This document shows positions 15,605 to 49,403 of a stretch of 64,000 nucleotides of DNA, piece after piece (the stretch's first letter is position 1; every line of letters begins with the position of its first letter). The position numbers and the translations under genes are program-made. This stretch comes from an uncultured Gammaproteobacteria bacterium (GTDB lineage: Bacteria > Patescibacteriota > Microgenomatia > JALYQM01): NCBI GenBank assembly GCA_964403585.1, contig CAYOFQ010000001.1:1216826-1280825 (forward strand), written 5' to 3'. The notes below the pieces were generated by a model. It did not search any database. It was not told the origin of the DNA and saw only the letters and a list, made by a program, of their open reading frames with translations.

Positions 15605-15607
15605 TAT

Positions 15608-28078: not shown

Positions 28079-30292
28079 ATGGCAAAAAGCGTCGAACAAC
28101 CTGCAGAACCTCAAAAACCACATCAGATAATTGAACTGAAACCAAACCGTTTTGGTCTGGAAACACCTGACACTGCTATCTCACTATTTGGAGCACTTTC
28201 CTCGCTACCTCGCGCACCTTTCTTTGAGCGGTTACGGGGACGACACCACTCTATTACCCTGGAAATTGCGACTATCAATCAGGCGATCCATTTTTTCGCC
28301 GAAATGCCTGATCAGTTTAAAACCTTTTTTGAGAGTCAGCTGATTTCCCACTATCCGACTATTCAAATGTACCAGGTCGATGACTATCTACCGGGGTTCC
28401 TCTCTCAACCATATTTATCGTATGGTCAAATAAAATTTTACTCACCCTTCTACTACCCCATCAAAACCTTAAAGGATTTTAAAGACATCGATCCGCTTTC
28501 TTCAATCCTGGGTGTCATGTCAAAAACAAAGCCCAATGAGGGAATGCTAATTCAAATGACGCTGACCGCCGCACCACCCACCTGGCAGCGTATGGGTAGA
28601 AATGTCATTGATAAGGGTATTCCCGGACCGGAAAAAGGTACACGTCAAGCGCATCCGCAGGCAGCACTTATTCAGAGTAAAATCGATAGCAACGGACTGC
28701 ATGTAGCGATTAAAGTTGCCGCCTTTGCGGCAGATCTGAATACGGCAAGATCCAATTTGTATAATTTGGGTGGAGCCTACGGAGGATTCGCAACTGGTGA
28801 AGGGAACGCTTTGATATTACGATTACCATCGGTATTTGCCCGCAAAAAATTCCTGGAAAGCATGCGACAAAGAACCATCGCCTTCTCACCTCGAAACCAT
28901 GTCTTCTCGGATGAAGAACTCGCTACCATTTGGCATCTACCGGGTGAAAAACTGGCCGGTATTAAAAACATTGCGTGGGGAAAAAGCCAGAAAGGTGAGC
29001 CGCCACAAAACTTACCAATCGCACGGAATTTAACAGCCGAACAGAAACAGGAAGTTGCTTGGCTGGGACGGACTGATTTTAAAAACACTGAGGAAATTTT
29101 TGGTATTAAAAAAGAGGACCGGTTTAAACACACGTATGTAATTGGAAAAACCGGTACGGGTAAATCCACGCTTTTACAAAATATGATTATCTCGGATATG
29201 CGCAATCGCGAAGGATTATGTATCATCGATCCGCATGGCGATTTCGCCGATGTTATCCTCGATTATGTACCATCCTACCGTATTAACGATGTTGTTTACC
29301 TTGATCCTTCCGACATGGAACATCCGTTCCGCTTAAATCCGTTCGAGTTAGGCACCATTAACGCCTCCGACCTTACCGGACAACGCGAACTGGTTGCTGC
29401 CGGTATTGTGGGAATTTTCAAAAAACTGTATGCCAAGAGCTGGGGACCCCGATTGGAATATATTCTACGCAATGTAATCCTGACACTGGTACAGTTTAAA
29501 GATGCTACCTTTTTATACGTACCGGAAATGCTCACCAACGACCGCGTTAGAGGCGCGATTGTCTCCCGCATCCAGGATCCGGTCTTACGCAGTTTCTGGG
29601 AACAGGAATTTGCCGGCATGACCGATAAACTCCGCACCGAAGCAATCTCACCAATTCTAAACAAAGTCGGACAATTTATCAGTTCGCAATATACCCGATC
29701 GGTTATCTCAAGCCCTCGTTCTTCTATAAGTTTGGAGCAAATAATGGACGAGAAAAAAATTCTTATTCTTAACCTGTCTCAGGGAAAAATCGGCGAAGAC
29801 AACTCTGCTCTCCTTGGTGCGATGTTTATTACCAAAATGCAGATCGCTGCGATGAACCGCGCCTGGCTCGCCAAAGACCAGCGCCAGGATTTTTTCCTTT
29901 ACGTCGATGAGTTCCAGAACTTTGCTACTGACGCGTTCATTAAAATTCTTTCTGAAGCTCGTAAGTATCGTTTGGCCTTGATCATGGCTAACCAGTACAC
30001 ATCTCAGCTTAACGACGATATCCGCAGTTCAATCTTCGGTAACGTCGGTACATTAGTTTCCTTTACGGTTGGAGCGGAAGACGCCCCGTATCTCTCAAGA
30101 GAATTTGGAGGAATTTATACTGAACAAGACCTAGTAGGTATCGACAACTACAATATTGTTTGTAAACTTAACATCGATAACCAGACAAGTTTACCTTTTA
30201 GTGCCAAGACATTACCACTGCCTTACCAGCTGAAAAATAAAAACAAAGAGAAAGTACTCAAAGTAAGCTGGGAAAAATACGGAAAAAAATAA
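28079..30292 (+). CDS. TraD/VirD4/TrwB-like coupling-protein-family P-loop NTPase (FtsK/HerA superfamily) with novel soluble ~330-aa N-terminal domain
   Basis: Walker A VIGKTGTGKSTLLQNMI, DPHGDF motif, Walker B LYVDEFQNF; no TM helix at the N-terminus; 737 aa. Confidence 0.6.
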   Translation: MAKSVEQPAEPQKPHQIIELKPNRFGLETPDTAISLFGALSSLPRAPFFERLRGRHHSITLEIATINQAIHFFAEMPDQFKTFFESQLISHYPTIQMYQVDDYLPGFLSQPYLSYGQIKFYSPFYYPIKTLKDFKDIDPLSSILGVMSKTKPNEGMLIQMTLTAAPPTWQRMGRNVIDKGIPGPEKGTRQAHPQAALIQSKIDSNGLHVAIKVAAFAADLNTARSNLYNLGGAYGGFATGEGNALILRLPSVFARKKFLESMRQRTIAFSPRNHVFSDEELATIWHLPGEKLAGIKNIAWGKSQKGEPPQNLPIARNLTAEQKQEVAWLGRTDFKNTEEIFGIKKEDRFKHTYVIGKTGTGKSTLLQNMIISDMRNREGLCIIDPHGDFADVILDYVPSYRINDVVYLDPSDMEHPFRLNPFELGTINASDLTGQRELVAAGIVGIFKKLYAKSWGPRLEYILRNVILTLVQFKDATFLYVPEMLTNDRVRGAIVSRIQDPVLRSFWEQEFAGMTDKLRTEAISPILNKVGQFISSQYTRSVISSPRSSISLEQIMDEKKILILNLSQGKIGEDNSALLGAMFITKMQIAAMNRAWLAKDQRQDFFLYVDEFQNFATDAFIKILSEARKYRLALIMANQYTSQLNDDIRSSIFGNVGTLVSFTVGAEDAPYLSREFGGIYTEQDLVGIDNYNIVCKLNIDNQTSLPFSAKTLPLPYQLKNKNKEKVLKVSWEKYGKK

Positions 30293-30298: not shown

Positions 30299-30979
30299 TC
30301 AGGCCGCGCATCGTCGACGATCGCTAACAGCCAAAGTCAACGTTCGATCAGGCAAATCAATACCCCGAGTAGATTCAATAGCATATCCATTGACATCATG
30401 AGACAGATGCAAATAGGAACTATTCTCTATTTTTGGGAATTCTCCGCGAGCAATTGCACCTAAACGGTGAAGTAACAACCTCATAATCCCATAATGGGTG
30501 GCCAAAAGAACAGTTCCGCCTTTGTACTCGTGGACTACTTGATCAAGAAACGGCAGGAGCCGATCATACACTTCTATATCTGACTCAAACTCAGGATGTG
30601 GCTTAAATCGTAAATACTCCTCATCATTTAAAGCAACATGCTCCTCCTCCACTCTGCGTAATTCCTGATGTGAACGACCCTCAAACCCACCAAAGTTTCT
30701 TTCTCGTAATGATGGAGTTAACTGGATTGCCAGAGGCCGGCGTCCACGAACAATATGCGCCGTTTGTATTGCGCGCGTGAGATCTGATGCATAAATTGCG
30801 TCAAAGCTAACTGCACTCAAATCTTCACCAGCCAAGAAGGCTTGCTCCATGCCTTGGTTTGTCAATTGCGCATCGTTAGACTGACCCGACAGCTTCCGAG
30901 CAACATTCCAATCTGTTTCACCGTGTCTGATTAAATAGAGATTTGTACCTTCTGAGGGGACAATTTGTTCAATAAACAT
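30299..30979 (-). CDS. histidine phosphatase family protein (phosphoglycerate-mutase-like)
   Basis: LYLIRHGETDWN RHG motif; 226 aa. Confidence 0.8.
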   Translation of the reverse strand: MFIEQIVPSEGTNLYLIRHGETDWNVARKLSGQSNDAQLTNQGMEQAFLAGEDLSAVSFDAIYASDLTRAIQTAHIVRGRRPLAIQLTPSLRERNFGGFEGRSHQELRRVEEEHVALNDEEYLRFKPHPEFESDIEVYDRLLPFLDQVVHEYKGGTVLLATHYGIMRLLLHRLGAIARGEFPKIENSSYLHLSHDVNGYAIESTRGIDLPDRTLTLAVSDRRRCAA

Positions 30980-31108
30980 AAAATTAAAGCGCGACAGTAA
31001 GTCATAATATTATATCATACACAAATAGTAATGTAACTAACTAAGACTAACTAAATATAACAGACCCTTCACATAGAAATTTAATACATAAAGCAGTATT
31101 ATATCGCC

Positions 31109-31735
31109 ATGAACATATTTTTCGTGAGACATGGTGAGTCAGAAGGAAACTCTCAGAGAGTACATCAAGGCGAGAATGCGGATTTGTCTGAAAAAGGCCG
31201 ACATCAAGCCCAACTTGTTGCCAAAAGACTCCAAGACCACAATATTCAGGTTATATATTGTAGCCCATTTCTGCGCGCAAAGCAAACAGCAGAAATAATA
31301 GCAGCGGGGTTGAAACTACCAATTACCTTCGCTGAGGATTTAAAAGAGTTAAGAAGACCATCAGAAATAGAAGGTCTCTCTTATGGTGATCCAAAAGCCG
31401 AAGAAATTAAATCAATAATAAAGCAAAACCAAACTATCCCTGACTGGCGATATTCTGACGACGAATCATTTAACGATATAGTAACCCGGGCCAAATCAAT
31501 AGAAAAAATCTTATTCGATAATCATCACGGCCAGAATGTACTCTGCGTGTCACATGTGCAGATCATTGTTATGATCACATTACACATCATTCTCCAAGAA
31601 AAGCTTACTCCGGAAGTCTTCTGGCAATTCTATTATCATGCGAGATACAACAACACTGGAATAACTCATTTACAGCATAATGAGACCTTCGGCTGGAACT
31701 TAATGACTTGGAATAATACGGTACACCTTAGCTAA
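31109..31735 (+). CDS. histidine phosphatase family protein (phosphoglycerate-mutase-like), second copy
   Basis: IFFVRHGESEGN RHG motif; 208 aa. Confidence 0.8.
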   Translation: MNIFFVRHGESEGNSQRVHQGENADLSEKGRHQAQLVAKRLQDHNIQVIYCSPFLRAKQTAEIIAAGLKLPITFAEDLKELRRPSEIEGLSYGDPKAEEIKSIIKQNQTIPDWRYSDDESFNDIVTRAKSIEKILFDNHHGQNVLCVSHVQIIVMITLHIILQEKLTPEVFWQFYYHARYNNTGITHLQHNETFGWNLMTWNNTVHLS

Positions 31736-32423
31736 GTGCCTCAAGTCGGCGGAGAGTCTGGAATGCGCCATCAACTCGTTTGGCTACCTGTTCTCGAGAA
31801 GCATGTCCGTTAATACGAATCATAGGAATATCATAGCGAGATAAGGCTTCAAGCGTACCCTCGAGTACCTGAGTGTATAAGTTGTACTTAGACTCAAATC
31901 TTTCTGGATGATCTTCTTTTCGAATAACCAGGGCACCATCGCAATCGGTACATCGACGAACTTCATGTTTATCGGCCAGCGTTGTTTGAGTTAAACAATC
32001 CGCGCATATTCGGCGCAGTTCAACTCGGCTAAGAAGTTCATCAAAGGGAACTTCTATAAGTACAATACCACCGAGTGCCAAATTACGCCGCTTAACAATA
32101 GACTGAAATGCAGAAACTTCACCTACATGTTTAGGAAAGCCATCAAAAAGTATTCCATGTCCTGAAACAAGCAACGCACCAACTTTTTCGTCGACTAATT
32201 CAACGACCTCTGGTTCCATTGGTTTAAATTCAGTCCGAGGTCCAGTTGAATATCCGGTAAAGTGCCGGACAACCTGAGTCCCTCTCTGAATTTGTTCACG
32301 CACCAACCCACCAAAGGAAAAATACTCAGAGTTAGTAATTTGACGAATTTGTTCGGCGACAGTAGTTTTCCCTGCACCTGGAGGGCCATACAGCAAATAC
32401 GATAACTCTGTTGTTTCCGACAT
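31728..32423 (-). CDS. adenylate-kinase-family NMP kinase with Zn-binding lid (second adk-like paralog)
   Basis: LLYGPPGAGKTT P-loop; lid cysteines CADC...CTDC; 231 aa. Confidence 0.65.
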   Translation of the reverse strand: MSETTELSYLLYGPPGAGKTTVAEQIRQITNSEYFSFGGLVREQIQRGTQVVRHFTGYSTGPRTEFKPMEPEVVELVDEKVGALLVSGHGILFDGFPKHVGEVSAFQSIVKRRNLALGGIVLIEVPFDELLSRVELRRICADCLTQTTLADKHEVRRCTDCDGALVIRKEDHPERFESKYNLYTQVLEGTLEALSRYDIPMIRINGHASREQVAKRVDGAFQTLRRLEALS

Positions 32424-32449
32424 AAAGCACAGCTTTCTTTATCGGGCAG

Positions 32450-33631
32450 TTATACTCTTGCACTTGCGTCTAATCCGACATAGCTCAAGATCATCCGCCG
32501 TTGGTCAGGAACATTTAGAAGGGGCGCAATGTATAAAGGCGCACGAGGCAAGTTAGTTTGTGTAATACCTTTACCTTTAGTAACCTCACCTTGTAATGAG
32601 TCGAGATCAGCCATATCCTTAATTAGACTTCGAATAACAGCTGTAGCTCCAGCAAAAGTAGCAACTGTACGATCATAAGGCTGAGGTGCCACTTCGGAAA
32701 AATCGACTGGCTTGCCTAAAATAATTTGTCGACCCAAGGCCACTACTTCGTAACGCAAAGCAGTCTGTAATAAAAAGTTGGATGCGACTTTCTCAGCATC
32801 ATCACCACCTATTGCTTTAATTTGCGCAGCGATTTCTTCAGCATCTCGTACACTATACTTAACCTCTTGACTGGAATGTTGATCTAAACGTCGATCAGCA
32901 TGTGCAGCCCGCATATGTCTCATACGAGCTTGAATATAATCAGTTAAATCGATACGAGGATAGTGCATAAACACCGCGTCCTGAACCAGTAGTCGATCAT
33001 CAGGTGAAATTAAACTGTTCATAACACTATCTGAGGTAATACCCTGCTGACCAAACATTACTGGTCCAAGCTCAGCGTCAATCAACAACAAACTCCCCTT
33101 CAGCCGTCGTTTATGCCTATTTTTAGTCGTAAATTCACGAGCTAAAGGATGCTTATCCGCTTCAAAAATTTCCATCAACATATACTCAGCGTCAGTTAAA
33201 CCAAGCTCAAGCATACGCATAACTTCAGGTGGGTACGTCGCGTAATTAGCTCCAACAATTGGTTTATCCCCTTGATCCCACATGTTCAAGAAAGCGCGAG
33301 GGAACGGCGAAACATCAGCATCAAGAAGGAAGGTGCGCCGAAGACCTGCAGAAACTGCATGGCGACAAATAGTTCTCTCGGCTGCTACCAAACCAGGAGG
33401 AGTCCGGATAAATTTTATGTCGGCATTAAAATCAGATTTATTTACACCCCACTCAAGCGGTTGTAATCCGCGATTAATACGCGGACCGTTAATACCAATC
33501 ACAATGCCTGCGTCTATTTGCATTTGGTTAAGACAAATATCCACATTTCGTAAAGCCGCGTCCAGAACGTCCGGGCCTTCACCATCGTAAAAAGGTATTC
33601 CAACAATAGTGCTACTCTCTGTGTTTACCAT
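32450..33631 (-). CDS. GT-A-fold glycosyltransferase-like protein
   Basis: N-terminal IVGIPFYDGEG and DxD-like TFLLDADVSP; 393 aa; weak assignment. Confidence 0.4.
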   Translation of the reverse strand: MVNTESSTIVGIPFYDGEGPDVLDAALRNVDICLNQMQIDAGIVIGINGPRINRGLQPLEWGVNKSDFNADIKFIRTPPGLVAAERTICRHAVSAGLRRTFLLDADVSPFPRAFLNMWDQGDKPIVGANYATYPPEVMRMLELGLTDAEYMLMEIFEADKHPLAREFTTKNRHKRRLKGSLLLIDAELGPVMFGQQGITSDSVMNSLISPDDRLLVQDAVFMHYPRIDLTDYIQARMRHMRAAHADRRLDQHSSQEVKYSVRDAEEIAAQIKAIGGDDAEKVASNFLLQTALRYEVVALGRQIILGKPVDFSEVAPQPYDRTVATFAGATAVIRSLIKDMADLDSLQGEVTKGKGITQTNLPRAPLYIAPLLNVPDQRRMILSYVGLDASARV

Positions 33632-33820
33632 AGCGAAAATAGTATCACAGCAGCTTTAATAAGTCAACTATAGGCTTCTTACTCCAATGGAAGTACATAA
33701 GTATAGTGTAAGAGTACAGTAAAAATGTTACAGCATTCCTACCAATCTACAACTCGATCAATACTTGCTACCACCGGTCAATTGCAGTATAATAGCAAAA
33801 ATTATAGGATATATAACTCT

Positions 33821-35005
33821 ATGTCAGAAAAAACAAAAGTCGGTATCAATATTGGCAAAGTCGGAAAATCAGACCGTGGTATCACTATTTATACCCAAGA
33901 CATGCTCCGCGAATTCGATAAACAAGGTCCCGATAATGTCGAATTTGTTCTCTTGCACTATCCCGGCAAATCTCCCGAAGACAGCATTGAACTCAAAAAT
34001 GCGACAATGGTAGAACTCCCCTATTCGGATAAGGCCGGCGCCATTGAGATGATCGAAAACGAACAGGTAATCGGCCCTCAACAACAACGACAACTCGGTC
34101 TTGATGTAGTCTGGCATCCTCACAACCGAGGGCAATTATGGACTCCCGTACCGTACGTCGAAACGTTGCATGATGTGCTACCTGTCGCAGCACCAGAACT
34201 GGCCGGAAATTATATCAATTCCGCTGAGAAAAGAGCGCTTAATGAAAGTCGTCTTTACACCGCCCGGTTCGCAACTCGAGTTATAACCGACTCGCAGTTT
34301 AGTAAAGATGAAATTATTAAACATTTAGGAGTAGCCCCAGAAAGAATCGATGTTGTCCACCTCGGAGTGAATCGAGACGTCTACCGCCCCATCATCGATG
34401 AAGAGCAGCGCGCCCAAGTGAGAGATCGATACCAATTACCAGAGGATTACATCCTCACCACAGGAAGCTATGCTCCACACAAGAACCAAATTACCATCCT
34501 TAAAGCCTATGCAGCTAGCCGGCTTCCTGACCAGGGAATCGGACTGGTGATGGTAGGTCCAAACGATGCAACTGGATATCGTATTGGCTATGAGCATATT
34601 AAGCAAACTGCCGAAGACATGGGATTACCTCCACTGCTGGTACGCTTACTCCCTTCAGTCCCAATTTCAGATTTAGTTACGTTGTACAGCGGCGCTAAGC
34701 TATTTACCTCAGCCTCACTTTACGAAGGATTTGGCTTAACACCGCTGGAAGCCATGGCTTGCGGAATTCCAGTTGTGGCCTCAAACGCAACCGCAGCTCC
34801 GGAAGTCTTGGGCACCGCTGCACTCTTTAGTGAACCAAAAGATGAACTGACCTATGCTCGACACTACGAGAATATTGTCGGCAGTAATGATACGCGAAGG
34901 AGATTAGTTGTTGCAGGCGCTGCTCAAGTGGATAAATATGATATACGCCGTACTGGTAAACAAACATTAGATATCCTTATTGAAGCAGCCAACTCTAAGA
35001 AGTAA
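33821..35005 (+). CDS. GT4-family (GT-B) glycosyltransferase; start taken at MSEKTKVGINIG, ORF track extends to 33725
   Basis: EGFGLTPLEAMACGIPVV motif (GT4 EX7E region). Confidence 0.8.
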   Translation: MSEKTKVGINIGKVGKSDRGITIYTQDMLREFDKQGPDNVEFVLLHYPGKSPEDSIELKNATMVELPYSDKAGAIEMIENEQVIGPQQQRQLGLDVVWHPHNRGQLWTPVPYVETLHDVLPVAAPELAGNYINSAEKRALNESRLYTARFATRVITDSQFSKDEIIKHLGVAPERIDVVHLGVNRDVYRPIIDEEQRAQVRDRYQLPEDYILTTGSYAPHKNQITILKAYAASRLPDQGIGLVMVGPNDATGYRIGYEHIKQTAEDMGLPPLLVRLLPSVPISDLVTLYSGAKLFTSASLYEGFGLTPLEAMACGIPVVASNATAAPEVLGTAALFSEPKDELTYARHYENIVGSNDTRRRLVVAGAAQVDKYDIRRTGKQTLDILIEAANSKK

Positions 35006-35015
35006 AGGGGATCGT

Positions 35016-35753
35016 ATGTCTGAAAGAACAACCATTGTTGAAGCAGATATTCATACTCAAGAGGCAGAAAGAGATGCCGACTTACGAGTATTATCTGGCT
35101 TACGGAGCTTGTCGGAATCAGTCCCTGGCTCATTCTTCTTGGTTACCGGTAGCTATGCGATCGAAGGACTAACCCACACCCCCCTCGAACACGATGACTT
35201 AGATGGTAATATCTTTACTCCTAATATGGGAATGAGTTTAGCCAGAACGGCTAATCTTATTGAAAATCTCGGTGTACGGGGTCGACGCTTTACCTTATAT
35301 AAAAGAACCGATGATCGTCTTGAATACGATGTGGTTACTCCAGCCTACAACCAAGGAGCCAAGCGACTGGAAATCCAATTTGTAGATTATCAAGCAATTA
35401 CAATGACACCCACTACTGTCGATTTTAGCGTACTCGGCAAAGATGGCCGAGTCTCACACGTACCTTCAGTACTTTTTCCTGCAACTGAAACCCAAGGAGC
35501 AGAAGTAACATTGCGAGCAAAGTCCTGTGCATATCTTATTGCGACCTGGGCTATCCGAATCAGTGGAGCTGCCGAAAGCCAAAAAAGAGCAGTACGACCA
35601 AGCGACATTGAACACCTCAGAATGCTTTTGAAGGGAGACTATAGCCCTCAAGAAGTCGTTACAGCTATTCAAACACACGTCCAAGCACCTTCCGATATAG
35701 ACGCTAACGGCGTATTTAGTGCAGCGATAGGAATTTGTCAGCAAACTTCTTAA
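35016..35753 (+). CDS. minimal nucleotidyltransferase (pol-beta superfamily, ANT(2'')/Lnu-like)
   Basis: LVTGSYAIEGLTHTPLEHDDLDG motif; SD-like aaagggg 6 nt upstream of the ATG at 35016; 11 nt after the GT4 stop. Confidence 0.5.
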   Translation: MSERTTIVEADIHTQEAERDADLRVLSGLRSLSESVPGSFFLVTGSYAIEGLTHTPLEHDDLDGNIFTPNMGMSLARTANLIENLGVRGRRFTLYKRTDDRLEYDVVTPAYNQGAKRLEIQFVDYQAITMTPTTVDFSVLGKDGRVSHVPSVLFPATETQGAEVTLRAKSCAYLIATWAIRISGAAESQKRAVRPSDIEHLRMLLKGDYSPQEVVTAIQTHVQAPSDIDANGVFSAAIGICQQTS

Positions 35754-35772
35754 AATACACGCAATTGCCTGC

Positions 35773-37038
35773 CTATAAGGATAGACCTTCTACCGCAAGT
35801 CGAACTAAATCGCTTGAAGGGATACTATCGATAACGGTAAAGTCGTCTTCTTGCAGCGCTTGGACAATCTCATCACTTGTATAGGGTGACGGCTCAACTG
35901 TAATCCCTTTGAAAGAACGAGCAGAAGACCACACGTTTTTTGATAAAACATCTCCAGGAATAAACGGGACGATTACCGGCCGACCCACGGCGCCAGCAAT
36001 ATGAGCTGGTCCCGTATCATTAGATAGAATTATATTGGAATGGCGAGCGACTATAGCCAAGTCTCTTAACGACGGCAGCTTAGTTACATTGCAATGAATA
36101 TTACCAGTACCCTCAAAGTCCCCGAACTGTGCCTCAATATCCTCAGTCGTATACCGGTCACGAGTGTTCCCACTTGGAGCACAAGCCATTATGCAGTCTA
36201 TTTGCCTGTTGGGGTCGACTTGAGCGACATACTTACTAACTTCTTGCAAGACCTCTTGCCAACGACCATAACATTTAGCAGGGACAAAAGATTGAAAGAA
36301 ACACATAATAGTAACAGCATCATCGCGTAATTCTAACTGCTGACGCAACTCACCATAGCGTGCAGTATCTTTCGCATCAAATAAGATGGTCGGTTGGGCC
36401 GCTGCCGAATCAATACTCCCCTCAGGCAGGGCAAACATGTGCTCAAAAAAACGGCTATAGCGTACTTCTGGACCAAGCCCGGCAAACCCACGAACAGCCG
36501 GCTTAAACAAATCTGATAGTACCGTTACATCACGAGAATCATTCCCCTGAGAATAGTGAATTCTGGAAATCGAAGGCCTGCGACCGTTGCCACCATGAAA
36601 ATCAAAAACCATCAAATTACCTGGCTCTGAAGTAAATAGTCCTTGTACCTGAAAATTGGATAATACCGGCATAACGGTCATAACTTCTACCGGTCGACCG
36701 AGTTCCTGAGAATATAAATCAGCTGGATACAATGAGGCTAATCCCTGGTCTATGACAAGCTTTATCGGAGTATCGGGCTTTCCTGCTTTAGTGAGAACTT
36801 CATGTATCGGGTGGATAAACGCGCTGGTCAGCACACCTTCCCCCAATCTACCGCCATTTCCACCAATCTGAAGCACAACTTTATCAACTGAATCTAAGTC
36901 GTGGAGGGTTAGCATGTGTTCTCGAGAAAAATTCTCAATTTTGAAGTCCGGCCTATAGTTGACAGGAAGATCCAGGTCATGAGTGGTTACATCACTCAGT
37001 ACCATTTTTCTAGACTCAAAAGCGACTTCAGTTGACAT
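35773..37038 (-). CDS. GT9-family glycosyltransferase (ADP-heptose:acceptor heptosyltransferase-like) with ~80-aa N-terminal extension
   Basis: SNDTGPAHIAGAVGRPVIVPF matches the GT9 NDTG.MHLAAA.G.P motif; 421 aa. Confidence 0.7.
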   Translation of the reverse strand: MSTEVAFESRKMVLSDVTTHDLDLPVNYRPDFKIENFSREHMLTLHDLDSVDKVVLQIGGNGGRLGEGVLTSAFIHPIHEVLTKAGKPDTPIKLVIDQGLASLYPADLYSQELGRPVEVMTVMPVLSNFQVQGLFTSEPGNLMVFDFHGGNGRRPSISRIHYSQGNDSRDVTVLSDLFKPAVRGFAGLGPEVRYSRFFEHMFALPEGSIDSAAAQPTILFDAKDTARYGELRQQLELRDDAVTIMCFFQSFVPAKCYGRWQEVLQEVSKYVAQVDPNRQIDCIMACAPSGNTRDRYTTEDIEAQFGDFEGTGNIHCNVTKLPSLRDLAIVARHSNIILSNDTGPAHIAGAVGRPVIVPFIPGDVLSKNVWSSARSFKGITVEPSPYTSDEIVQALQEDDFTVIDSIPSSDLVRLAVEGLSL

Positions 37039-37116
37039 TGTTTACCCCTCCTCTTCTATGGGTTAAATAATAGCATATTGACAATATAAGTGCAACTATA
37101 AGATAATACGCAAGCT

Positions 37117-37974
37117 ATGATTAATGAGCTAATTACGCTTGATAGGCTTAGTCCAAAAGACCTGGTAGAGATATCTCGGGGGCCATTGCGACCAAGACGA
37201 AGCACCGAAGAACTCCTTCGGGAACTTGACCGAACAGGCATTCCCGCTACTCGTCGACTGGCTGCGAGAATTCAGCTACAGGACAATAGCACTCCTGGAT
37301 ACGAAAAGCAATTGGCGAGCTCAGTTATGGACAGCAGTAATTTGCCATTAACGAATAATACCATTGAACTGTGCAACTTTGGAGGGGAAGCCGATGTATA
37401 TTTGTATGAAGGTAAAAACGGTGAAAAAGTCGCTATCAAAATTTTAAAAGGATCAGTTAACGCCTCACCAGACCGGCTTAAAGAAATAGCCCTCGAAACA
37501 CGAGCAGAATATGAATGGGTGAAACAAACGTATGCGGCTTTTCCTGAGTTAGTAATCAATGAAGAGTACCTTATTCTTCACGGACCAGTTATGGCTATGC
37601 CAGCGGTCGCGATAGTCCAACCGGTAATCAGTAAATATAAGGATTTATTCTTAGATTTTACGCCTAAACAATTACTAGAAATAGCAGCACAAGATCTAAA
37701 TTTTCGAGATCAGCTTCACTACTTTGCAGCGCAAACGGTAAAAACTTACAAGGAAGAACGAAAAGTAATTGATATTTCATTAGGTAAAAATAACGTCGTG
37801 GTATTCGGAGAAAATTCCGAATCACCACGGATTGCCATAGTAGACCCTCATTCTATTCACACTTCACACTTTATACATAATCTGTACCCTAGAGCAAAAA
37901 TCAAAGTAGTTCAAATTCTACAAGAACGACTCAACCTTCTGTCAGAATTAAGTAGGGATTTATCTCAACTTTAG
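37117..37974 (+). CDS. small protein-kinase-fold kinase (Kdo-kinase/WaaP/RIO/Bud32-like)
   Basis: Gly-loop plus Lys: LCNFGGEADVYLYEGKNGEKVAIKILK; possible catalytic region IAIVDPHS; 285 aa. Confidence 0.5.
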   Translation: MINELITLDRLSPKDLVEISRGPLRPRRSTEELLRELDRTGIPATRRLAARIQLQDNSTPGYEKQLASSVMDSSNLPLTNNTIELCNFGGEADVYLYEGKNGEKVAIKILKGSVNASPDRLKEIALETRAEYEWVKQTYAAFPELVINEEYLILHGPVMAMPAVAIVQPVISKYKDLFLDFTPKQLLEIAAQDLNFRDQLHYFAAQTVKTYKEERKVIDISLGKNNVVVFGENSESPRIAIVDPHSIHTSHFIHNLYPRAKIKVVQILQERLNLLSELSRDLSQL

Positions 37975-37980: not shown

Positions 37981-38013
37981 AAAAACCTCCGTTTCCGGAG
38001 GTTTAATTTTTTC
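37981..38013. terminator. bidirectional rho-independent terminator between the kinase gene (+) and the 16S transcript (-)
   Basis: aaacctccg-tttc-cggaggttt stem-loop with a T-run 3' on the plus strand and an A-run 5' (T-run on the minus strand). Confidence 0.6.
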
Positions 38014-38165: not shown

Positions 38166-39640
<1,475 letters not shown>

Positions 39641-39738
39641 ATAAAAATTATCCATCAAATTTTGGGTATTCCGTTATCAATCCTACTAACTCTTACAAGC
39701 GTTCGGTCTGTCAAACGGAATGAAATTCATAGGAATTG

Positions 39739-40883: not shown

Positions 40884-41963
40884 TTGAGAATAGGTCTACA
40901 ATATGATATAAAAAAGCGTCCCTACATATGCACATCGAACAACTGGATTTTCTTGCACCAACACCATGGAATACAACAATGGAACTCATCAGTAATAACC
41001 CGTACGACGCTGGATGATATGTGGTTCCCTGTTTACTGTGACATGAACCGGGAATGGGTTCACTTGGATCCGTATGTTTTCGGTACGAATGGTTCGGAGA
41101 CAATCGAAGGGCCATTACCTGAACTGATACACGTTCTGGCTAAAGCTATCGGAATTGAAATACCGGTTATCCTTACCACGGAGGAACAGATTTCTGCCGA
41201 TGTTTATGAAGAACAAACCCAACTGGTACCCGGTAACGTTTCTCGGGCTGTCGCACTACGCAAAATTTTGGCACAACACGCTGATCAAGGATACTCACCC
41301 GGACCTGACAATATGGGAGAAGTGCTCGCCGAAGCCGAAGAACAACGAAAAAAGCAGCGGTTCCTGCGCAGAAAAATCGGATTTGCAAAAAAAACGTATC
41401 AGGAAACCGTCTACCATAAACCGCAAATTAACGTAATTCATGTCCTCGATCACCCCTACCAAAGCACTCAATCTCAACTTAATGCATATATGTGGTGGGT
41501 CAATAATTTCTATTATTATGTCATGGCCCGTCCCAACAACGGAACTCAATCAATCACCTATATCACCCGCGACATTGACTCTCCACTTGGATTCCCCAAA
41601 AATGTTCGTTCTCAAGGCGCCTTGCATATAAACACTACCGGCGATACAAATACCTTGCTGGATCTGGCGATTGAACATACTGCATTGCTCAAACAAGGAC
41701 CAAATAGCAAAACACACATCTTCTATTACTCTACACCGGAGCAACATCCCCGCATGCTGGAACAAACCTTAAACCAGGTACAGGCACTGGATTTAGAAAA
41801 CGACTCAATAACACTCTTAGAAGGAGACAATGTGTATCGCCAAAGTCCACTTTACTATCACCTTCACTCTCAAGGTGGTACGCTTCAGGCGGAAAAATTC
41901 GACCCTAATAAGATAGGACAAACTCTCAGCCTTACCCTACGAAACCCCTTTAGATATGCATAG
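40884..41963 (+). CDS. hypothetical protein, 359 aa
   Basis: Long ORF; true start may be an internal Met. Confidence 0.45.
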   Translation: MRIGLQYDIKKRPYICTSNNWIFLHQHHGIQQWNSSVITRTTLDDMWFPVYCDMNREWVHLDPYVFGTNGSETIEGPLPELIHVLAKAIGIEIPVILTTEEQISADVYEEQTQLVPGNVSRAVALRKILAQHADQGYSPGPDNMGEVLAEAEEQRKKQRFLRRKIGFAKKTYQETVYHKPQINVIHVLDHPYQSTQSQLNAYMWWVNNFYYYVMARPNNGTQSITYITRDIDSPLGFPKNVRSQGALHINTTGDTNTLLDLAIEHTALLKQGPNSKTHIFYYSTPEQHPRMLEQTLNQVQALDLENDSITLLEGDNVYRQSPLYYHLHSQGGTLQAEKFDPNKIGQTLSLTLRNPFRYA

Positions 41964-42006: not shown

Positions 42007-44835
42007 ATGCTTTCAAAAACGCTGAGCAATTCTCTCCAACGCAATAAAATAGTATTTATCTATGCAATTTTCGCAGCAGTTCTTGGCTTGTCACTCTATT
42101 ACAGCCAGACATCAACAGTAAAAATCAATCAAAAGAAACCTGAGATCTCCGGAACACTTCGGCATATTACCCAACACGTACTCGATCAGGAAAATCCCAT
42201 TGAGCAGGCAGTGCTTGTAACAGAGGGGAAAACATACACTTTGGATTATGGAGATAACCTGGAAGAATATTACAATAAGTATATAACCGTCCAGGGAGAC
42301 ATTAATCAGAATACGCTCATTGCACAAAAAATAGAGCTCTCCACAAACGCTTCGTTGACCGATATTGACTCAAGTGAAGCGCAATCAACAACCGGCGATA
42401 TAAAACCATTAGTACTTCTCATTAATTTCAAGGACAATACGTCAACTCCTTTTAGCAAAGAATTACTTGCTCAGAACATTTTTACCGGAGAAAATTCAGT
42501 AAAAAATTATTTTACTGAAGCTTCATTTGGAAAAACAAAAATTATCGGCGACATAAACAGTGTCAAAGGATGGTATACCATCGACTTGGCAAGCGACAAA
42601 TGTGATACAAATTGGCTTTATGATATGGGTATCAAAGCCAGAGCAAAAGCAGAAGCTGACGGAATTAGCTACAGCAACTACAACTCCTTTATCATCATCC
42701 ATGCTCGAACAGCAGCCTGCAGTACCAAGCTAGACGGAAAAACATATCCAATTGAAGGACTGTCTGAGTTAGGAGGAAGATTGGTCTGGATGAACGGCAA
42801 TGCGAATATCCGACCTATTGCCCATGAAATTGTACATACGATGGGTATCGGACACTCGCATCTCTGTACAGACATTTCCTGCCAAACAATTAGGGAAACC
42901 GGCGACCGGACAGATTTAATGGGAATTTACCAAAACACAGCGCCTTCACATATTAACGCAGCGTTTAAAAATGCTCTTAAATGGATTCCTGAAACCGAAC
43001 CCCGCACAAAAAGACTACTTGGTCCGAAGAAATATGATAATCTAGCGATTTATCCTGTCGAAGAATCAAGTTCTAACACCCAGCTAATAAAAATTGGAAT
43101 TCTCCCCCCTTATTATTCGGCGGACTATACTATTACCTACCGAGTTAAAAAGGACAATAACTTCGACGCTCGGGCAAATATTGAAAACGGAATATATATC
43201 CACCGTTATTCCACACTTGAGTCAACATTCGGGAAACAATCACCCAGTTCAAAATTAGTCAGACATTTGACCCCTGGCAACCCAACATTTACCGATCCGG
43301 AATATAAAGTAACAATCAAATTAATTGGCATGGATTCAACAAAAGCAAACTTGTTTATAGATTACGGGCTTGATGGAACGTTCGTCAACGAACCTGCACC
43401 TAGTCCAAGCGGTACTGCCCCGTCCATCAGCTACTGTTCAGGGCTCGATGCTAAAAATATGCTCTCTAACGCTGTGACTTATTGTTACGGACATGCGAAG
43501 AGCACAACCTGCGCAACTATGGATACAGCTCTTCGAGCATCATATGGACCGGCCAATCTATGCGAACAAAATAAAACCCAGTGTACCAGCGGTGCTTCCA
43601 GCGGGATATGTACTGCCGCAGCCGAATTTCAAAAAGTTACCGATTGGTGTTATAACATCGTACGCAATGATCCGACCGAAGCCGGCAAAGCTGGCGTCAG
43701 CGCAAAATGGTGCAATGATTTCGCGACAGTAACAAGTGATGCCCATGAAGACTGCAACACCTGTTCCGGCGGCACCGGAAGTAATCCTGAAGCCACACCG
43801 AAGATAGTAGCAATCAATGGAGGTATTTGGGATACTAATGGAAATCCGGTGAGTGGAGTAAAAGTAAAAGTTGAAGGCAATGGAGCTAGCGGCGCCTGGA
43901 AACCATACTTCCCGACAACTCGACCAAACGGGACTTTTAGTCAAGGTGGATTTATAGTTAAAGGCGGAAGATATAACGTCTCGGTAGTTGATGTTGAAGC
44001 AAAAACTATTGTTGAGCCTGATACAAAAAATAGAGTTACCGGACAAGATACACCACTTGGATCAGTTGCGTATCTAAATCAACAAGCGGAAAGCGACGAT
44101 TGCACAGAAAGTTGGGGTGGAGCTGATTCTCGATGTATTTTTCTAGTACGAAAACCTTTGGACATCGGAACTGCCAATGACGTTACGACATTCTATTACC
44201 CTTCAAATGACCGAATAGTGGTGCATCGCTCCTATGTAATGAAAGACGGGCGAACTTTCAATTGGAGAAAATGTTCATTTCCTCCTGCAAAAGGATGGCC
44301 TGTTTACTGTGAAGGATATAACAAAACAATGCTGGATACACCTACTCCAATACTCGGGTACGGAGCACTCATGATCTCGAGCAAAGTTCGCCAGGATTTT
44401 ATCGCATCCAACGGACAGACCAGGTACAGTAGAGTCTGCGCATGGAACAAAGAAAAATCTCAGGTTACAACTTGTGGGGCGTATGTTACCGAAAAAATTA
44501 CTGCCCCAACCGCAGTCAGAGACATTAACACGATGATTTTGTTCGGAAAATATCGGGAATCGCTCATTAGCCTTGATGGCAAAAAAACGTATTCAAGGGA
44601 CTGCACACTAGACTTCAGCACCACTGCTTTTTCAAACTGTACAGCATATCAAACATACTCAACTCAAACAATACTTTCTGGCGGTGTTAGTGGTTATGGA
44701 GCACTCCCTTATCGAGATGGGTATGGCAGAACTGCAATTCAGCAAATATTCCTTGGCATGGATGGACGTACATTCCAGGTGGGAAGCTGTGTTGCTCAAT
44801 CCTCCAGCAATATTACCTGCAAGAATGTATTTTAG
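42007..44835 (+). CDS. large secreted/membrane-anchored metzincin-like zinc metalloprotease with Cys-rich C-terminal region
   Basis: N-terminal hydrophobic anchor IVFIYAIFAAVLGLSLYY; IAHEIVHTMGIGHSH fits HExxHxxGxxH; more than 25 Cys in the C-terminal half; 942 aa. Confidence 0.6.
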   Translation: MLSKTLSNSLQRNKIVFIYAIFAAVLGLSLYYSQTSTVKINQKKPEISGTLRHITQHVLDQENPIEQAVLVTEGKTYTLDYGDNLEEYYNKYITVQGDINQNTLIAQKIELSTNASLTDIDSSEAQSTTGDIKPLVLLINFKDNTSTPFSKELLAQNIFTGENSVKNYFTEASFGKTKIIGDINSVKGWYTIDLASDKCDTNWLYDMGIKARAKAEADGISYSNYNSFIIIHARTAACSTKLDGKTYPIEGLSELGGRLVWMNGNANIRPIAHEIVHTMGIGHSHLCTDISCQTIRETGDRTDLMGIYQNTAPSHINAAFKNALKWIPETEPRTKRLLGPKKYDNLAIYPVEESSSNTQLIKIGILPPYYSADYTITYRVKKDNNFDARANIENGIYIHRYSTLESTFGKQSPSSKLVRHLTPGNPTFTDPEYKVTIKLIGMDSTKANLFIDYGLDGTFVNEPAPSPSGTAPSISYCSGLDAKNMLSNAVTYCYGHAKSTTCATMDTALRASYGPANLCEQNKTQCTSGASSGICTAAAEFQKVTDWCYNIVRNDPTEAGKAGVSAKWCNDFATVTSDAHEDCNTCSGGTGSNPEATPKIVAINGGIWDTNGNPVSGVKVKVEGNGASGAWKPYFPTTRPNGTFSQGGFIVKGGRYNVSVVDVEAKTIVEPDTKNRVTGQDTPLGSVAYLNQQAESDDCTESWGGADSRCIFLVRKPLDIGTANDVTTFYYPSNDRIVVHRSYVMKDGRTFNWRKCSFPPAKGWPVYCEGYNKTMLDTPTPILGYGALMISSKVRQDFIASNGQTRYSRVCAWNKEKSQVTTCGAYVTEKITAPTAVRDINTMILFGKYRESLISLDGKKTYSRDCTLDFSTTAFSNCTAYQTYSTQTILSGGVSGYGALPYRDGYGRTAIQQIFLGMDGRTFQVGSCVAQSSSNITCKNVF

Positions 44836-46501: not shown

Positions 46502-47299
46502 ATGATTCCTTCACCACCACTCAACGCAGTGCATCTTGGACCAGTAACAATTCATTTATATGGCTTTATTATAGCACTCGCCATAACTATATGTTATATC
46601 CTTGCATTAAAAATTGCAAAAGAAAAAGGGTTCTCTTCTGATGACGTTGATTCATACTTCTTCACAACGATACCAGTCGCACTCATATTCGCCCGTGGAT
46701 ATCACGTCTTTACCAACTGGAGTATTTACGCGAAAAATCCACTGAGCATTTTTGCAGTTTGGAATGGGGGGCTCGGAATTTTAGGTGCAATTATCGGCGG
46801 AGCGCTCACACTATTCTACTTGAGCAAAAAAACTAAGCATAATTTCATAGCGATAGCCGACTTTATCTTCCCCCTACTTGCCCTAGGACAAGCTATCGGG
46901 CGCTGGGGGAATTATTTTAACCAGGAGTTATACGGTAGTCCAAGCACTCTTCCCTGGGCAGTTCATATTGACGAGATCAACCGGCTTCCGGCTGTCAAAC
47001 AATACCCAACGTTTCACCCTACTTTTCTCTATGAGTCTTTATTAAACTTTATCAATTTCGGGATTTTGTGGGTTATATACCGGAAATATTCGCCACGCGG
47101 AGGAATTGTGACGAGCTTATACTTACTGAACTACGGGATCATCCGTTTCCTCGTCGAATTGGTCAAACTTGATCCGGATACCGACAGCAAAATTGGATTA
47201 TTACGTGTACCTCAATATCTCGCACTACTTCTGGTTAGTATCGGTGTTGTTCTCGCAATAAGATCATTCCACCAGAAAAAGATCGAGCATCGCGTTTGA
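46502..47299 (+). CDS. lgt: prolipoprotein diacylglyceryl transferase
   Basis: GRWGNYFNQELYG signature, multi-TM; 265 aa. Confidence 0.85.
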   Translation: MIPSPPLNAVHLGPVTIHLYGFIIALAITICYILALKIAKEKGFSSDDVDSYFFTTIPVALIFARGYHVFTNWSIYAKNPLSIFAVWNGGLGILGAIIGGALTLFYLSKKTKHNFIAIADFIFPLLALGQAIGRWGNYFNQELYGSPSTLPWAVHIDEINRLPAVKQYPTFHPTFLYESLLNFINFGILWVIYRKYSPRGGIVTSLYLLNYGIIRFLVELVKLDPDTDSKIGLLRVPQYLALLLVSIGVVLAIRSFHQKKIEHRV

Positions 47300-47920
47300 G
47301 TTTGGTGTGTGATCAACAGGGGGATTGAGATCTTTCGTATGATACCCCGAAGTTCCATCTTTACCACAATATTTAACTAGTGGATCCTTGCCTCCCGGGT
47401 GTAAAGTCATATAGTCGCTGACATTATAGATTTTGTGATCAATAACCATCCAGCAGTCATTCTGCGTATTATGTGAAGCAACTCGAACTAATTGCGGATC
47501 CGGAGGCTGAGTCGGCACCGGGGTTGGCGTAGGTGTCGGTGTTGGTGTCGGAGCCTGAGTAGGGGCTGGCGTCGGTGTCGGCGTAGCTGTTGGCTGAGTA
47601 GTTGCAGTAGTCGTGGCCGTGGCTGCTACAGCCGAAGGCTTTGGTGTCGCGGTTGGCTTCCTGGTAGGCGTTGGAGAAGGAGTAGGCGTTGCAATATCAT
47701 CGGGAGTTTCCGCTACCTCAGGAGAGTTCGTCAGGAATTCATCGGTCGGGGCTGGTGATAGTACCGCGGCTACCTCGGTAGGATTCGGTGAGGCCGATTT
47801 TTTGCCATTTTTTGATGAATTGGCTACAACCGATCGTTGCGAAAAATACACTACTACCAGCAAAATACAAACAAAGTTAATTATGCTAATCCGAATCAAA
47901 ATTAATAAATACGATTTCAT
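47264..47920 (-). CDS. membrane-anchored secreted protein with Pro/Thr-rich linker and C-terminal cytochrome-b5-like heme-binding domain
   Basis: N-terminal TM; PT linker; HNTQNDCWMVIDHKIYNVSDYMTLHPGG...GKDGTSGYH matches the cyt-b5 pattern [FY]-x-x-x-H-P-G-G plus the distal His. Start at 47920 lies 1 nt from the NOX-like stop (47922). Confidence 0.65.
   Translation of the reverse strand: MKSYLLILIRISIINFVCILLVVVYFSQRSVVANSSKNGKKSASPNPTEVAAVLSPAPTDEFLTNSPEVAETPDDIATPTPSPTPTRKPTATPKPSAVAATATTTATTQPTATPTPTPAPTQAPTPTPTPTPTPVPTQPPDPQLVRVASHNTQNDCWMVIDHKIYNVSDYMTLHPGGKDPLVKYCGKDGTSGYHTKDLNPPVDHTPNSNAMLDLFLVE
47483..47700. repeat. low-complexity ACN/CCN codon repeat encoding the Pro/Thr linker
   Basis: Repeated ggtgtcgg/ggtgttgg units on the plus strand (= TPTPTPTP on the minus). 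Confidence 0.6.
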
Positions 47921-47921
47921 A

Positions 47922-49229
47922 CTATAAAATATTAAAGTCCTCAAAAATAATGTCTTTCTCGTCAACCCCTCGAGATATAAACTGATTTTGTAAGCTCTTC
48001 ATCATTGGTTGTGGTCCACACATTAGTATCGTATACCCCGCGAGCGAACCGACAGTTCTCCAAATAGCGTCCCCATTCAGCCTCCCCTGGTCATGCGACG
48101 CCCACGGAATAAAACGTACCGATGGAGTATATGAAGTAAGGGTGTTTATTTCATCAACAAAAACCGCTTCTTGGGAATTTTTAAACGAATAAAATAATAC
48201 AATATTTCGAGATTTGGGATATACTGATTCAAAACGTAACATACTCAAAAATGGAGTAATTCCAATTCCGCCCCCAATAAACAACAAATTTTTATCTCCT
48301 TTCATATACGCACTACCAAACCGGCCATACGGACCGAAAATATGGGCGAAATCTCCCGGAGCCAGTTCTGTTAACCGCTTCGTGTAGTCACCCAAAATCT
48401 TAGCGCTTACTCTAATACCCTCTTCCCATGGAGCCGATGAAAATGAAAAAGGATGTAATTCATTCCCCAACTTTTGATTATCAAAACGTATATAAATAAA
48501 CTGTCCTGGGACAAATTTGATGGCTTTTTCTTCAGGTTTCAAATATATACTAAACACGTCACCCGTCCTGGTGATGTTCTCTATAACATATTTATAACGT
48601 GGACCAAACTTACGATATAAAAAAAGAATATATAAGGAAGAAAATATCCCAATAGCAATAAAAATATAGGTCCACCCACGAAGCAGTGCATTTCTGGTTA
48701 CATCGCTGGGGATATATACCGTATGAAGGCTACCCAAAATAAAAGATACAACTAACAGTCGGTGAGACCACAACCACGCACTATACGAAACCTTTATAAA
48801 CCCAATAAAAATAAAAGACAGGATCATTGAATATATCGCTGCAATTCCAAGATTATAGGCTAAATCACTACTCGGAAAAATATAAAACAAAGCCAACTTA
48901 AAATGAGGTAAATAATGGATTACTAGGAATAACGGGTGATTAATTAGGAAAATAAAGGAAATTCCACCAATAATATGATGCAGCACATAGTCTGAATCAA
49001 GCCCACCGAATATGTCTTCAAGAATCGCCAAACGCGTTGAGAATAACAAAGCAACAGAACAAAGCACTAACCCTAACAATGACAGAATTTGACTAACAGC
49101 TAGGAAGGGTTGTGTAGAAATTATCGCAAGATCGTCCTTCGAGAGTAACCAAAACGCAATTGTATTGACACAACAAAGTATGAGTATCGTGTACCCCAAT
49201 GCTTTATACATAGCACCATGATAATGCAT
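47922..49229 (-). CDS. ferric-reductase / NADPH-oxidase (NOX/FRE) family flavocytochrome: TM bis-heme domain + FAD-binding + NAD(P)H-binding domains
   Basis: Two His-x13-His pairs in TM helices (HHIIGGISFIFLINH; HRLLVVSFILGSLH); FAD motif HPFSFSS; NAD(P)H motif GGGIGITPF; 435 aa. Confidence 0.8.
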   Translation of the reverse strand: MHYHGAMYKALGYTILILCCVNTIAFWLLSKDDLAIISTQPFLAVSQILSLLGLVLCSVALLFSTRLAILEDIFGGLDSDYVLHHIIGGISFIFLINHPLFLVIHYLPHFKLALFYIFPSSDLAYNLGIAAIYSMILSFIFIGFIKVSYSAWLWSHRLLVVSFILGSLHTVYIPSDVTRNALLRGWTYIFIAIGIFSSLYILFLYRKFGPRYKYVIENITRTGDVFSIYLKPEEKAIKFVPGQFIYIRFDNQKLGNELHPFSFSSAPWEEGIRVSAKILGDYTKRLTELAPGDFAHIFGPYGRFGSAYMKGDKNLLFIGGGIGITPFLSMLRFESVYPKSRNIVLFYSFKNSQEAVFVDEINTLTSYTPSVRFIPWASHDQGRLNGDAIWRTVGSLAGYTILMCGPQPMMKSLQNQFISRGVDEKDIIFEDFNIL

Positions 49230-49383: not shown

Positions 49384-49403
49384 CTTAGTAGCTATAGTAT
49401 TGT

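Follow-up and report, generated by a model that had tools for sequence, protein, structure and literature searches.

The genes of the segment and its host

We have analyzed a segment of 5.5 kb (positions 32450-37974) that lies within a 64 kb stretch of DNA, the window from here on, belonging to a genome of at least 1.57 Mb; every absence reported for the window is limited to that stretch. Five genes, here called A to E, follow each other in the segment. Gene A (32450-33631, minus strand, 393 aa) codes for a predicted GT-A-like (GT2-like) glycosyltransferase, B (33821-35005, plus strand, 394 aa) for a retaining glycosyltransferase of family GT4, C (35016-35753, plus strand, 245 aa) for a predicted nucleotidyltransferase of the Pol-beta type, D (35773-37038, minus strand, 421 aa) for a divergent GT-B glycosyltransferase of family GT9, and E (37117-37974, plus strand, 285 aa) for a minimal enzyme with a RIO-like protein-kinase fold. 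A sequence-only reading had taken this gene set as an enzyme toolkit of the kind that assembles the inner core of lipopolysaccharide (LPS), in a bacterium of the candidate phyla radiation (CPR). The CPR represents a large share of bacterial diversity and its cell envelopes are almost uncharacterised; had the LPS-like reading held, it would bear on the debate about monoderm and diderm cells. The observation itself is confirmed by our analysis, and the peptide motifs quoted for it were all found in their places, but the LPS inner-core reading is not supported, and the earlier interpretation as a whole is only partly supported.

The open reading frames (ORFs) of B and C are open already from 33725 and 34980, respectively. 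The starts given above, 33821 and 35016, are probably the right ones, as the genes called on a public contig of identical sequence code for proteins of 394 and 245 aa, which sets the start of C 10 nt after the stop of B. C and D lie tail to tail, 20 nt apart, and D and E diverge from a spacer of 78 nt. With A on the minus strand, B and C on the plus strand, D on the minus and E on the plus strand again, the segment is made of four transcription units and not of a single operon. All of its proteins are acidic by computed charge, and no convincing membrane-spanning stretch or signal peptide was found in any of them.

Two genes located just before A belong with it, as described in the next section. 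One codes for a histidine phosphatase (31109-31735, plus strand, 208 aa; PF00300, E 1.1e-38) and the other for an adenylate-kinase-like nucleoside monophosphate (NMP) kinase with a Cys4 lid (31728-32423, minus strand, 231 aa; PF00406, E 8.6e-16), a paralogue of the housekeeping Adk found at 598-1161. A further histidine-phosphatase paralogue (30299-30979, minus strand, 226 aa; PF00300, E 1.3e-44) marks the left edge of the variable segment. It is directly preceded by an ATPase of the DUF8128/DUF87/TraG type, similar to the coupling proteins of type IV secretion systems (28079-30292, plus strand), that is more than 90% identical and syntenic among close relatives. In two of these relatives the synteny of the str operon, PMSR, YdjM and the ATPase is kept and other genes are found beyond the ATPase. 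Since gene content diverges right after this gene among close relatives, the whole segment can be considered variable.

The right boundary is a full-length 16S rRNA gene (38166-39645, minus strand; RF00177, 1441.9 bits), devoid of large insertions (1480 nt against the 1533 positions of the model). It stands alone, with no 23S rRNA, 5S rRNA or tRNA gene in the 64 kb window, which shows that the rRNA genes are not linked. A hairpin resembling a bidirectional terminator (37983-38004, 9-bp stem, T-runs on both strands) lies between this gene and E. In our promoter and terminator scan such terminator-like sites were no commoner than in shuffled sequence and the hairpin is a consensus match only, so that promoter and terminator sites can be taken as suggestive at most.

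The assignment of the host to the CPR was upheld. The window contains the ribosomal S10, spc and str operons together with SecY, Adk, EF-G and EF-Tu. The SecY matches carrying a lineage name were all from the CPR (Patescibacteria group, Ca. Parcubacteria and Ca. Levybacteria, 58-62% identity), and closer matches in relatives reached 75-91%. Probes aimed at the 16S rRNA of TM7 gave no diagnostic result. Besides, the gene for ribosomal protein S5 (4231-4818, minus strand) is followed directly by that for L15 (3792-4226, minus strand) with nothing between them, indicating that uL30 is absent from its canonical place. The lack of uL30 is usual in CPR bacteria. The affinity of SecY and the absence of uL30 thus support, at the level of gene sequence, a CPR host.

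A conserved module and two single enzymes

Protein B is a GT4 enzyme, as had been proposed. It matched PF00534 (77.3 bits, E 1.3e-21) and PF13439 (50.7 bits, E 2.8e-13). Among proteins of solved structure the best relative was MshA (1.8e-15), followed by GlgM (6.9e-10), an enzyme similar to sucrose-phosphate synthase (SPS) (5.9e-7) and WaaG (3.4e-4), the last with an E-value eleven orders of magnitude weaker than the best; models of WaaG-type LPS enzymes gave E 1e-5 to 1e-3. NCBIfam agreed with the PDB on these nearest relatives, although B remained far below every equivalog cut-off (for MshA, 98.5 bits against 462.5). MshA, SPS and GlgM are GT4 enzymes that glycosylate small phosphorylated acceptors, with a phosphatase acting next. 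A phosphatase is also conserved in the operon of B, here one of the His_Phos_1 type, but the known pathways lack counterparts of the GT-A-like enzyme, the predicted Pol-beta nucleotidyltransferase and the NMP kinase that the operon also encodes.

Neither A nor C had a match in Pfam or NCBIfam, and searches of both against PDB sequences, with single sequences and with profiles, were marginal at best. When E, A and C were joined into one query for a full HMMER search, a family was recovered for each of them. In the family of A (15 members) a D104-x-D106 motif is invariant, and five of the 15 members hit the GT2 model PF00535 below threshold (the best, in a family member, with 20.3 bits against 23.3). 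The UniRef cluster of the closest homologue, 53% identical, includes a protein from Ca. Shapirobacteria (PIU33647.1) and is labelled 'Glycosyltransferase 2-like domain-containing'. These sequence features agree with the earlier description of A as GT-A-like. The family of C (45 members) has G45, D61, D63 and E119 invariant and S46 in at least 90% of the sequences, which is the signature of Pol-beta nucleotidyltransferases and agrees with the nucleotidyltransferase proposed before. Nearly half of the family (22 of 45) hit PF10706, the model of ANT(2''), below threshold (best E 5.9e-4), and the profile search against the PDB gave for C a weak match to lincosamide nucleotidyltransferase. The G-S...D-x-D...E catalytic core is what C shares with ANT(2'')-Ia and Lnu/LinB. 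It differs from them in its sub-threshold scores, in a conserved C-terminal region (W178, R181, S183, R191, H221 and Q223) that falls outside the models, and in its setting within a glycosyltransferase operon.

A metagenome scan with an alignment of 12 C-family sequences provided 30 loci, to which ORF calling and the family hidden Markov models (HMMs) were applied. In all, 37 loci were surveyed, many of them short, and 31 carry C. On many of these metagenome contigs the histidine phosphatase, the Adk-like kinase, A, B and C recur in this order on the same strand. Of the 31 loci with C, 23 also have A, 16 have B and 14 have a NUDIX hydrolase, while the Adk-like kinase was found in 13 and the phosphatase in 12. 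The order A-B-C or A-C is conserved, and the Adk-like gene adjoins the A homologue in 13 of the surveyed loci. The locus with the closest A homologue (L093) has on one strand the phosphatase (60% identity), the Adk-like kinase, A (52%) and B (54%), while one with a C homologue (L097) has an aminoglycoside phosphotransferase (APH), the phosphatase (62%), the Adk-like kinase, A (47%) and C (40%). In the window the five genes of the module follow each other directly (31109-35753), but two of them, the Adk-like gene and A, run on the other strand, and there is no NUDIX gene. The phosphatase of the module (31109-31735) is the one that corresponds to the first operon gene of L093 and L097 (60-62% identity), and its best solved relatives are the small-molecule phosphatases PhoE, CobC and PspA. 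The paralogue at 30299-30979 shares no more than about 25-27% identity with the phosphatases of the same two loci and is not the operon-type copy.

Elsewhere a NUDIX hydrolase often joins the module, and an APH/fructosamine-kinase-like kinase sometimes does so (L097, L098 and L115). NUDIX genes lie beside it at 3426-4367 of L098 and also in L101, L106, L120, L123 and L124, some of them fused to an NTPase_I-T (ITPase-like) domain. In L110 an IS481-type transposase (8850-9830) comes directly after the C gene, a hint that the surroundings of the module are mobile or rearranged. The module is widespread on groundwater CPR contigs and represents a widely conserved, undescribed CPR operon of soluble glycosyltransferases and nucleotide-handling enzymes, in which two families lack a Pfam model. 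No GT9 gene was detected in the 37 surveyed loci, either with the HMM of the D family or with that of canonical GT9 enzymes.

Protein D (35773-37038) carries LSNDTGPAHIAGAVG and is a real, although divergent, GT9 enzyme, a conclusion that rests on Pfam, profile-profile comparison, a custom HMM and the predicted fold. The GT9 assignment proposed earlier survived the profile search with 28.6 bits against PF01075 (gathering score 22; E 1.1e-6), in a match that spans profile positions 135-207 of 247, the nucleotide-sugar-binding part alone. As a reference we used 24 canonical GT9 genes extracted from diderm loci, found through the shared motif; D matched their HMM with E 9.4e-15. When the profile of the D family was aligned to the canonical set (hhalign) the probability was 98.8% (E 9.6e-17) over 321 columns, covering both Rossmann domains, a similarity well above what chance would give. 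The AlphaFold model of D (mean predicted local distance difference test score, pLDDT, 89.9; predicted TM-score 0.89) had GT9 folds at Foldseek ranks 1-9, all within E 2e-10 to 2e-7: 3TOV, WaaF 1PSW and WaaC 2H1H/2H1F/2GT1/6DFE. Single-sequence and profile searches of D against PDB sequences gave marginal matches at best.

Only 20 proteins among 5.8 billion matched D, one of them 44% identical and the others 34-40%. Specifically, the invariant positions of this family are G59-G60..G63-R64.G66-E67, C246-F-F-Q-S..V.A-K255-C-Y, C286 and N340-D-T-G-P.H346..G-A. D341-T-G-P-A-H346 and K255 are invariant in 20 of 20 members and aligned to the canonical positions, and in the hhalign comparison the NDTGPxHIA block is identical between both groups. 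The heptosyltransferase signature has been defined as D(T/S)(G/A)XXH, in WaaC D261...H266 (PMC3559599), and D13, K192 and D261 are catalytically important residues of WaaC (PMC5713226). K255 of D pairs with K201 of the canonical alignment and is the equivalent of WaaC K192. Where the canonical enzymes have an invariant G17-D18, the D family has an equally invariant G66-E67, and E67 aligns with the catalytic D13 of WaaC, the carboxylate being retained as Glu. From this alignment to the published signature and catalytic residues, D keeps the donor-site signature, with Glu at the position of the base.

D thus shares with WaaC (HepI), WaaF (HepII) and the Veillonella enzyme 3TOV the GT-B fold, the DTGPAH signature, Lys255 (their Lys192) and a carboxylate at the putative base position. 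D is about 12-16% identical to them and some 70 residues longer, being extended at the N-terminus and having a beta-hairpin region inserted at about 140-220, uses Glu in place of Asp as putative base, and has three extra invariant cysteines. It is also acidic, lacks an LPS gene context and is found in lineages regarded as devoid of LPS (Ktedonobacteria and CPR). The bacterial autotransporter heptosyltransferases (BAHT) TibC and AAH have a GT9-like GT-B fold as well and use ADP-heptose on a protein acceptor; they offer a plausible functional analogy for a GT9 enzyme that might act on a non-lipid acceptor. However, TibC ranks below WaaC, WaaF and 3TOV as a fold match of D (rank 12, E 3.6e-7), and no autotransporter or adhesin domain was found in the genes flanking D. 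Autotransporters need an outer membrane.

The three extra cysteines (C246, C256 and C286) do not vary within the D family and lie on both sides of the donor-phosphate Lys255. TibC reportedly has iron-finger cysteines; those of D are in the C-terminal Rossmann domain, beside Lys255. In two Ktedonobacteria loci (L006 and L003) the D-like gene is near genes for rhodanese, NifU and ThiS. A metal site or a redox link for these cysteines is possible, but coincidence may explain the pattern.

Full-length relatives of D in species-representative genomes were found only in Ktedonobacteria (Chloroflexota), and the 13 loci with D homologues belong to Ktedonobacteria apart from one unassigned contig. In Ktedonobacteria they are stand-alone genes, whose neighbours are unrelated and not conserved. 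No relative of A, C or E was found within 10 kb of the D homologues in the 13 loci, and a tblastn search of the same loci with the B of the window gave no match. Among precomputed Pfam annotations, available for three of the loci (L003, L004 and L006), no LPS-type neighbour was seen, and the other loci had no conserved neighbour family. An ABC ATPase lies just downstream of the D homologue in four, probably related, loci and elsewhere in two more. Canonical GT9 genes (PF01075, E ~1e-23) were found in Ktedonobacter sp. SOSP1-85 (L008, 1789-2694, minus strand) and Tengunoibacter tsumagoiensis (L011, 335-1378, minus strand). They are part of a conserved block that includes a HerA/DUF87 ATPase and lie ~8 kb away from the D-like gene, indicating that GT9 genes occur beyond the LPS-bearing phyla. 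A literature search on GT9 in CPR or Chloroflexi returned nothing useful. D and its relatives form a small GT9 clade outside the LPS-bearing lineages that keeps the donor signature of heptosyltransferases.

D falls below the LPS equivalog cut-offs (TIGR02201 19.1/170.2, TIGR02195 18.4/134.6 and TIGR02193 17.5/185.3 bits), those of WaaC, WaaF and WaaQ being missed by an order of magnitude. It has a pI of 5.0 and a net charge of -18 (family medians 5.55 and -14), while the 24 canonical enzymes are basic (median pI 9.0, net +5.5). Positively charged residues in the N-terminal domain of a heptosyltransferase have a described role for its anionic acceptor (PMC5713226). According to a review of outer-membrane genes, Chloroflexi are devoid of LPS and the few CPR cells described are monoderm (PMC8871954). 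The missed equivalog cut-offs, the acidic family, the stand-alone homologues and the occurrence in lineages reported to lack LPS argue, as far as sequences can tell, against D being an LPS core enzyme.

Protein E had no match in Pfam or NCBIfam, and a word-index search for homologues returned no relatives. The HMMER search mentioned above recovered more than 60. The resulting family of 64 sequences conserves G89, K108, D219, N226 and D243, which correspond to the Gly-loop, the Lys, the catalytic loop and the metal-binding Asp of kinases. A model built with the family alignment (pLDDT 93.3) had kinases as all of its top-50 Foldseek matches, with Rio2 first (E 1.6e-5) and PknB, AAK1 and Rio1 also present, at TM-scores of only 0.33-0.38. 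Single-sequence and profile searches of E against PDB sequences were marginal at best. The sequence-only reading had compared E to RIO kinases and to the kinases of 3-deoxy-D-manno-octulosonic acid (Kdo), and it is the first half of this comparison that holds. WaaP/KdkA (PF06293) and the RIO kinases resemble E in the Gly-loop, a VAIK-type Lys, the catalytic D..N, a DFG-like Asp and the lack of an activation segment. However, none of the 64 members matched PF06293, RIO1, APH, Pkinase or any other of the Pfam kinase families. By its model, E has a RIO-like protein-kinase fold, and it comes from an undescribed family that is not the Kdo/WaaP one.

Domains similar to E are found C-terminal to a Wzx-type flippase (P0267, at L130 6563-8947), to a deacetylase of carbohydrate esterase family 4 (CE4) (P0332) and to a thymidylate-kinase-like P-loop domain (P0326). 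We know of no description of these fused architectures. The Wzx fusion is part of a polysaccharide cluster with Asn-synthase-like, CE4-GT4 and epimerase genes, and a thymidylate-kinase-like protein accompanies it there as well. Two more E homologues had too little flanking sequence to be informative. What sets the E family apart from WaaP/KdkA is its association with these three partner domains, in polysaccharide clusters other than those of LPS. We regard this family, which occurs fused to Wzx flippases and is covered by no Pfam model, as candidate glycan kinases.

Three probably independent pieces

We consider it rather probable that the 5.5 kb stretch consists of three independent pieces located side by side in a variable region of a Microgenomates-like CPR chromosome, and the adjacency of GT9, GT4 and kinase genes is best explained as a chance juxtaposition. 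What follows builds on the observed folds, conserved residues and neighbourhood patterns, and all of the substrates in it are putative. The first piece would be the module of soluble enzymes formed by A, B, C, the histidine phosphatase and the Adk-like kinase. B, as a GT4 similar to MshA, SPS and GlgM, may couple a nucleoside-diphosphate sugar to a small phosphorylated acceptor, the phosphatase would then strip the phosphate and A could add a further sugar. The ANT-like nucleotidyltransferase, the NMP kinase and, where present, the NUDIX enzyme may handle or attach a nucleotide moiety. Altogether this would be a cytoplasmic pathway leading to a glycoside via a phosphorylated intermediate, with nucleotide-handling accessory enzymes. 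The second piece would be D, a lone GT9 enzyme whose donor site appears intact (DTGxxH, Lys255 and the Glu67 carboxylate replacing the catalytic Asp). It may use a nucleotide-activated sugar as donor, possibly a heptose, and an acceptor that is soluble or non-anionic and would not be Kdo2-lipid A. The third would be E, which may phosphorylate a glycan or a lipid-linked sugar, its family being tied to Wzx-dependent polysaccharide clusters.

Several points weigh against three unrelated pieces. D and E are wedged against the module with the short spacings given above (20 nt between C and D, 78 nt between D and E), and packing this tight makes a strain-specific functional link possible. An E-like gene adjoins the module in L124 and is ~8 kb away from it in L120. 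The absence of GT9 from the surveyed loci may be partly a matter of sampling, as many of the metagenome loci are short. The small-molecule product of the module is something that we purely infer, A and C having no characterised close relatives. In addition, genes for heptose or Kdo synthesis could lie elsewhere, since the window covers 64 kb of at least 1.57 Mb.

The tight packing and the short spacers would also fit a single accessory pathway for a surface glycan or glycoprotein, encoded by all eight genes (30299-37974), in which D and E had been recruited to extend and phosphorylate the product of the module. That close relatives lack the whole segment at the syntenic site, that the E-like gene of L124 is beside the module and that the E family is linked to polysaccharide clusters are consistent with it. 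We nevertheless regard it as unlikely, because the eight genes form at least four transcription units on alternating strands and the segment codes for no polyprenyl-phosphate glycosyltransferase, flippase, polymerase or ligase, nor for any protein with a signal peptide or membrane span. Besides, D was never found with the module in the surveyed loci, and the D-bearing Ktedonobacteria loci lack the module. A bolder proposal is that the D family are cytoplasmic heptosyltransferases unrelated to LPS, with a protein, wall glycan or small molecule as acceptor, in bacteria that lack an outer membrane (Ktedonobacteria and some CPR), and that D together with E produces here a phosphorylated, heptose-bearing envelope glycoconjugate. 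We hold this to be quite improbable; if true, it would mean LPS-core-like chemistry on a single-membrane cell, and the synthesis or scavenging of heptose nucleotides in a CPR organism. The softer alternative of the sequence-only reading, that D works in the glycosylation of a non-LPS glycan or of proteins, may hold.

The original suggestion, that D, B and E work together in the manner of WaaC/F, WaaG and WaaP/KdkA to make a phosphorylated, heptose-containing core-like glycan, which would mean that a CPR bacterium has LPS-like chemistry or an unexpected envelope, seems to us highly improbable. D does have the full heptosyltransferase donor signature, with WaaF, WaaC and 3TOV as nearest solved folds, E has a minimal fold of the RIO/Kdo-kinase kind, and the genes are adjacent. 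However, the trio co-occurs nowhere else among the surveyed loci, A-B-C forms an operon of its own without GT9, and the loci of D homologues lack A, C and E. D reaches 17-19 bits where the NCBIfam models of heptosyltransferases I, II and III require 135-185, and its family is acidic while the GT9 enzymes that bind lipid A are basic. The E family has no match to PF06293, B resembles MshA far more than WaaG, and D has its relatives in Chloroflexota, for which a lack of LPS has been reported (PMC8871954). No gene for heptose, Kdo or lipid A synthesis (GmhA, HldE, GmhB, KdsA, KdsB or Lpx) was found in a Pfam scan of the window ORFs, which covered 60 ORFs of at least 150 aa minus two overlapping and probably spurious ones. 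Turning to the module itself, it is very doubtful that its enzymes modify xenobiotics or antibiotics in the style of aminoglycoside, lincosamide or macrolide inactivation, as a set made of an ANT-like nucleotidyltransferase, kinases similar to APH or RIO, and glycosyltransferases. The only database similarity of the C family is to ANT(2'') and lincosamide nucleotidyltransferases, and the module has an APH/fructosamine-kinase gene beside it in L097, L098 and L115, but the similarities are all sub-threshold and concern the generic Pol-beta core only, the strict five-gene order with an NMP kinase and a phosphatase is unlike the organisation of resistance genes, and the module occurs widely on CPR contigs from groundwater. 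We find it scarcely credible that the genes serve against phages, or in another kind of conflict, by modifying nucleotides or sugars: B matches PF20706 ('GT4 in conflict systems') at 33 bits and the set includes nucleotidyltransferase, NUDIX and kinase components, but that score is far below the 77 bits of the generic GT4 model and there is no nuclease or effector gene. The defence reading was rejected because PADLOC models gave no match to the eight proteins of the segment beyond P-loop motifs.

Other features of the window

There was no sign of recent transfer of D in its GC content (0.453 against 0.431 for the window). Elsewhere in the window, an ORF of 423 aa with no Pfam match (1215-2486, minus strand) lies between SecY and the housekeeping Adk, a slot that normally holds conserved genes only. 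A second glycan-related cluster is located at 14180-19133. It includes a glycosyltransferase of the TagA/WecG family (15608-16378) flanked by ORFs of 474 and 376 aa with no Pfam match, together with a thymidylate-kinase-like P-loop protein (16358-17080) and a methyltransferase. The P-loop protein is similar to the one found with the Wzx fusion in L130, and its kind of domain is also the one joined to an E-like domain in P0326. Near the 16S rRNA gene there are two more ORFs with no Pfam match, both on the plus strand (40884-41963, 359 aa, and 42007-44835, 942 aa). Further along, a NOX-like ferric reductase with transmembrane, FAD and NAD domains (47922-49229) lies between two cytochrome-b5-domain proteins (47264-50417), and a cupredoxin is coded at 53601-54056. 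Such redox proteins are unusual in a reduced CPR genome.

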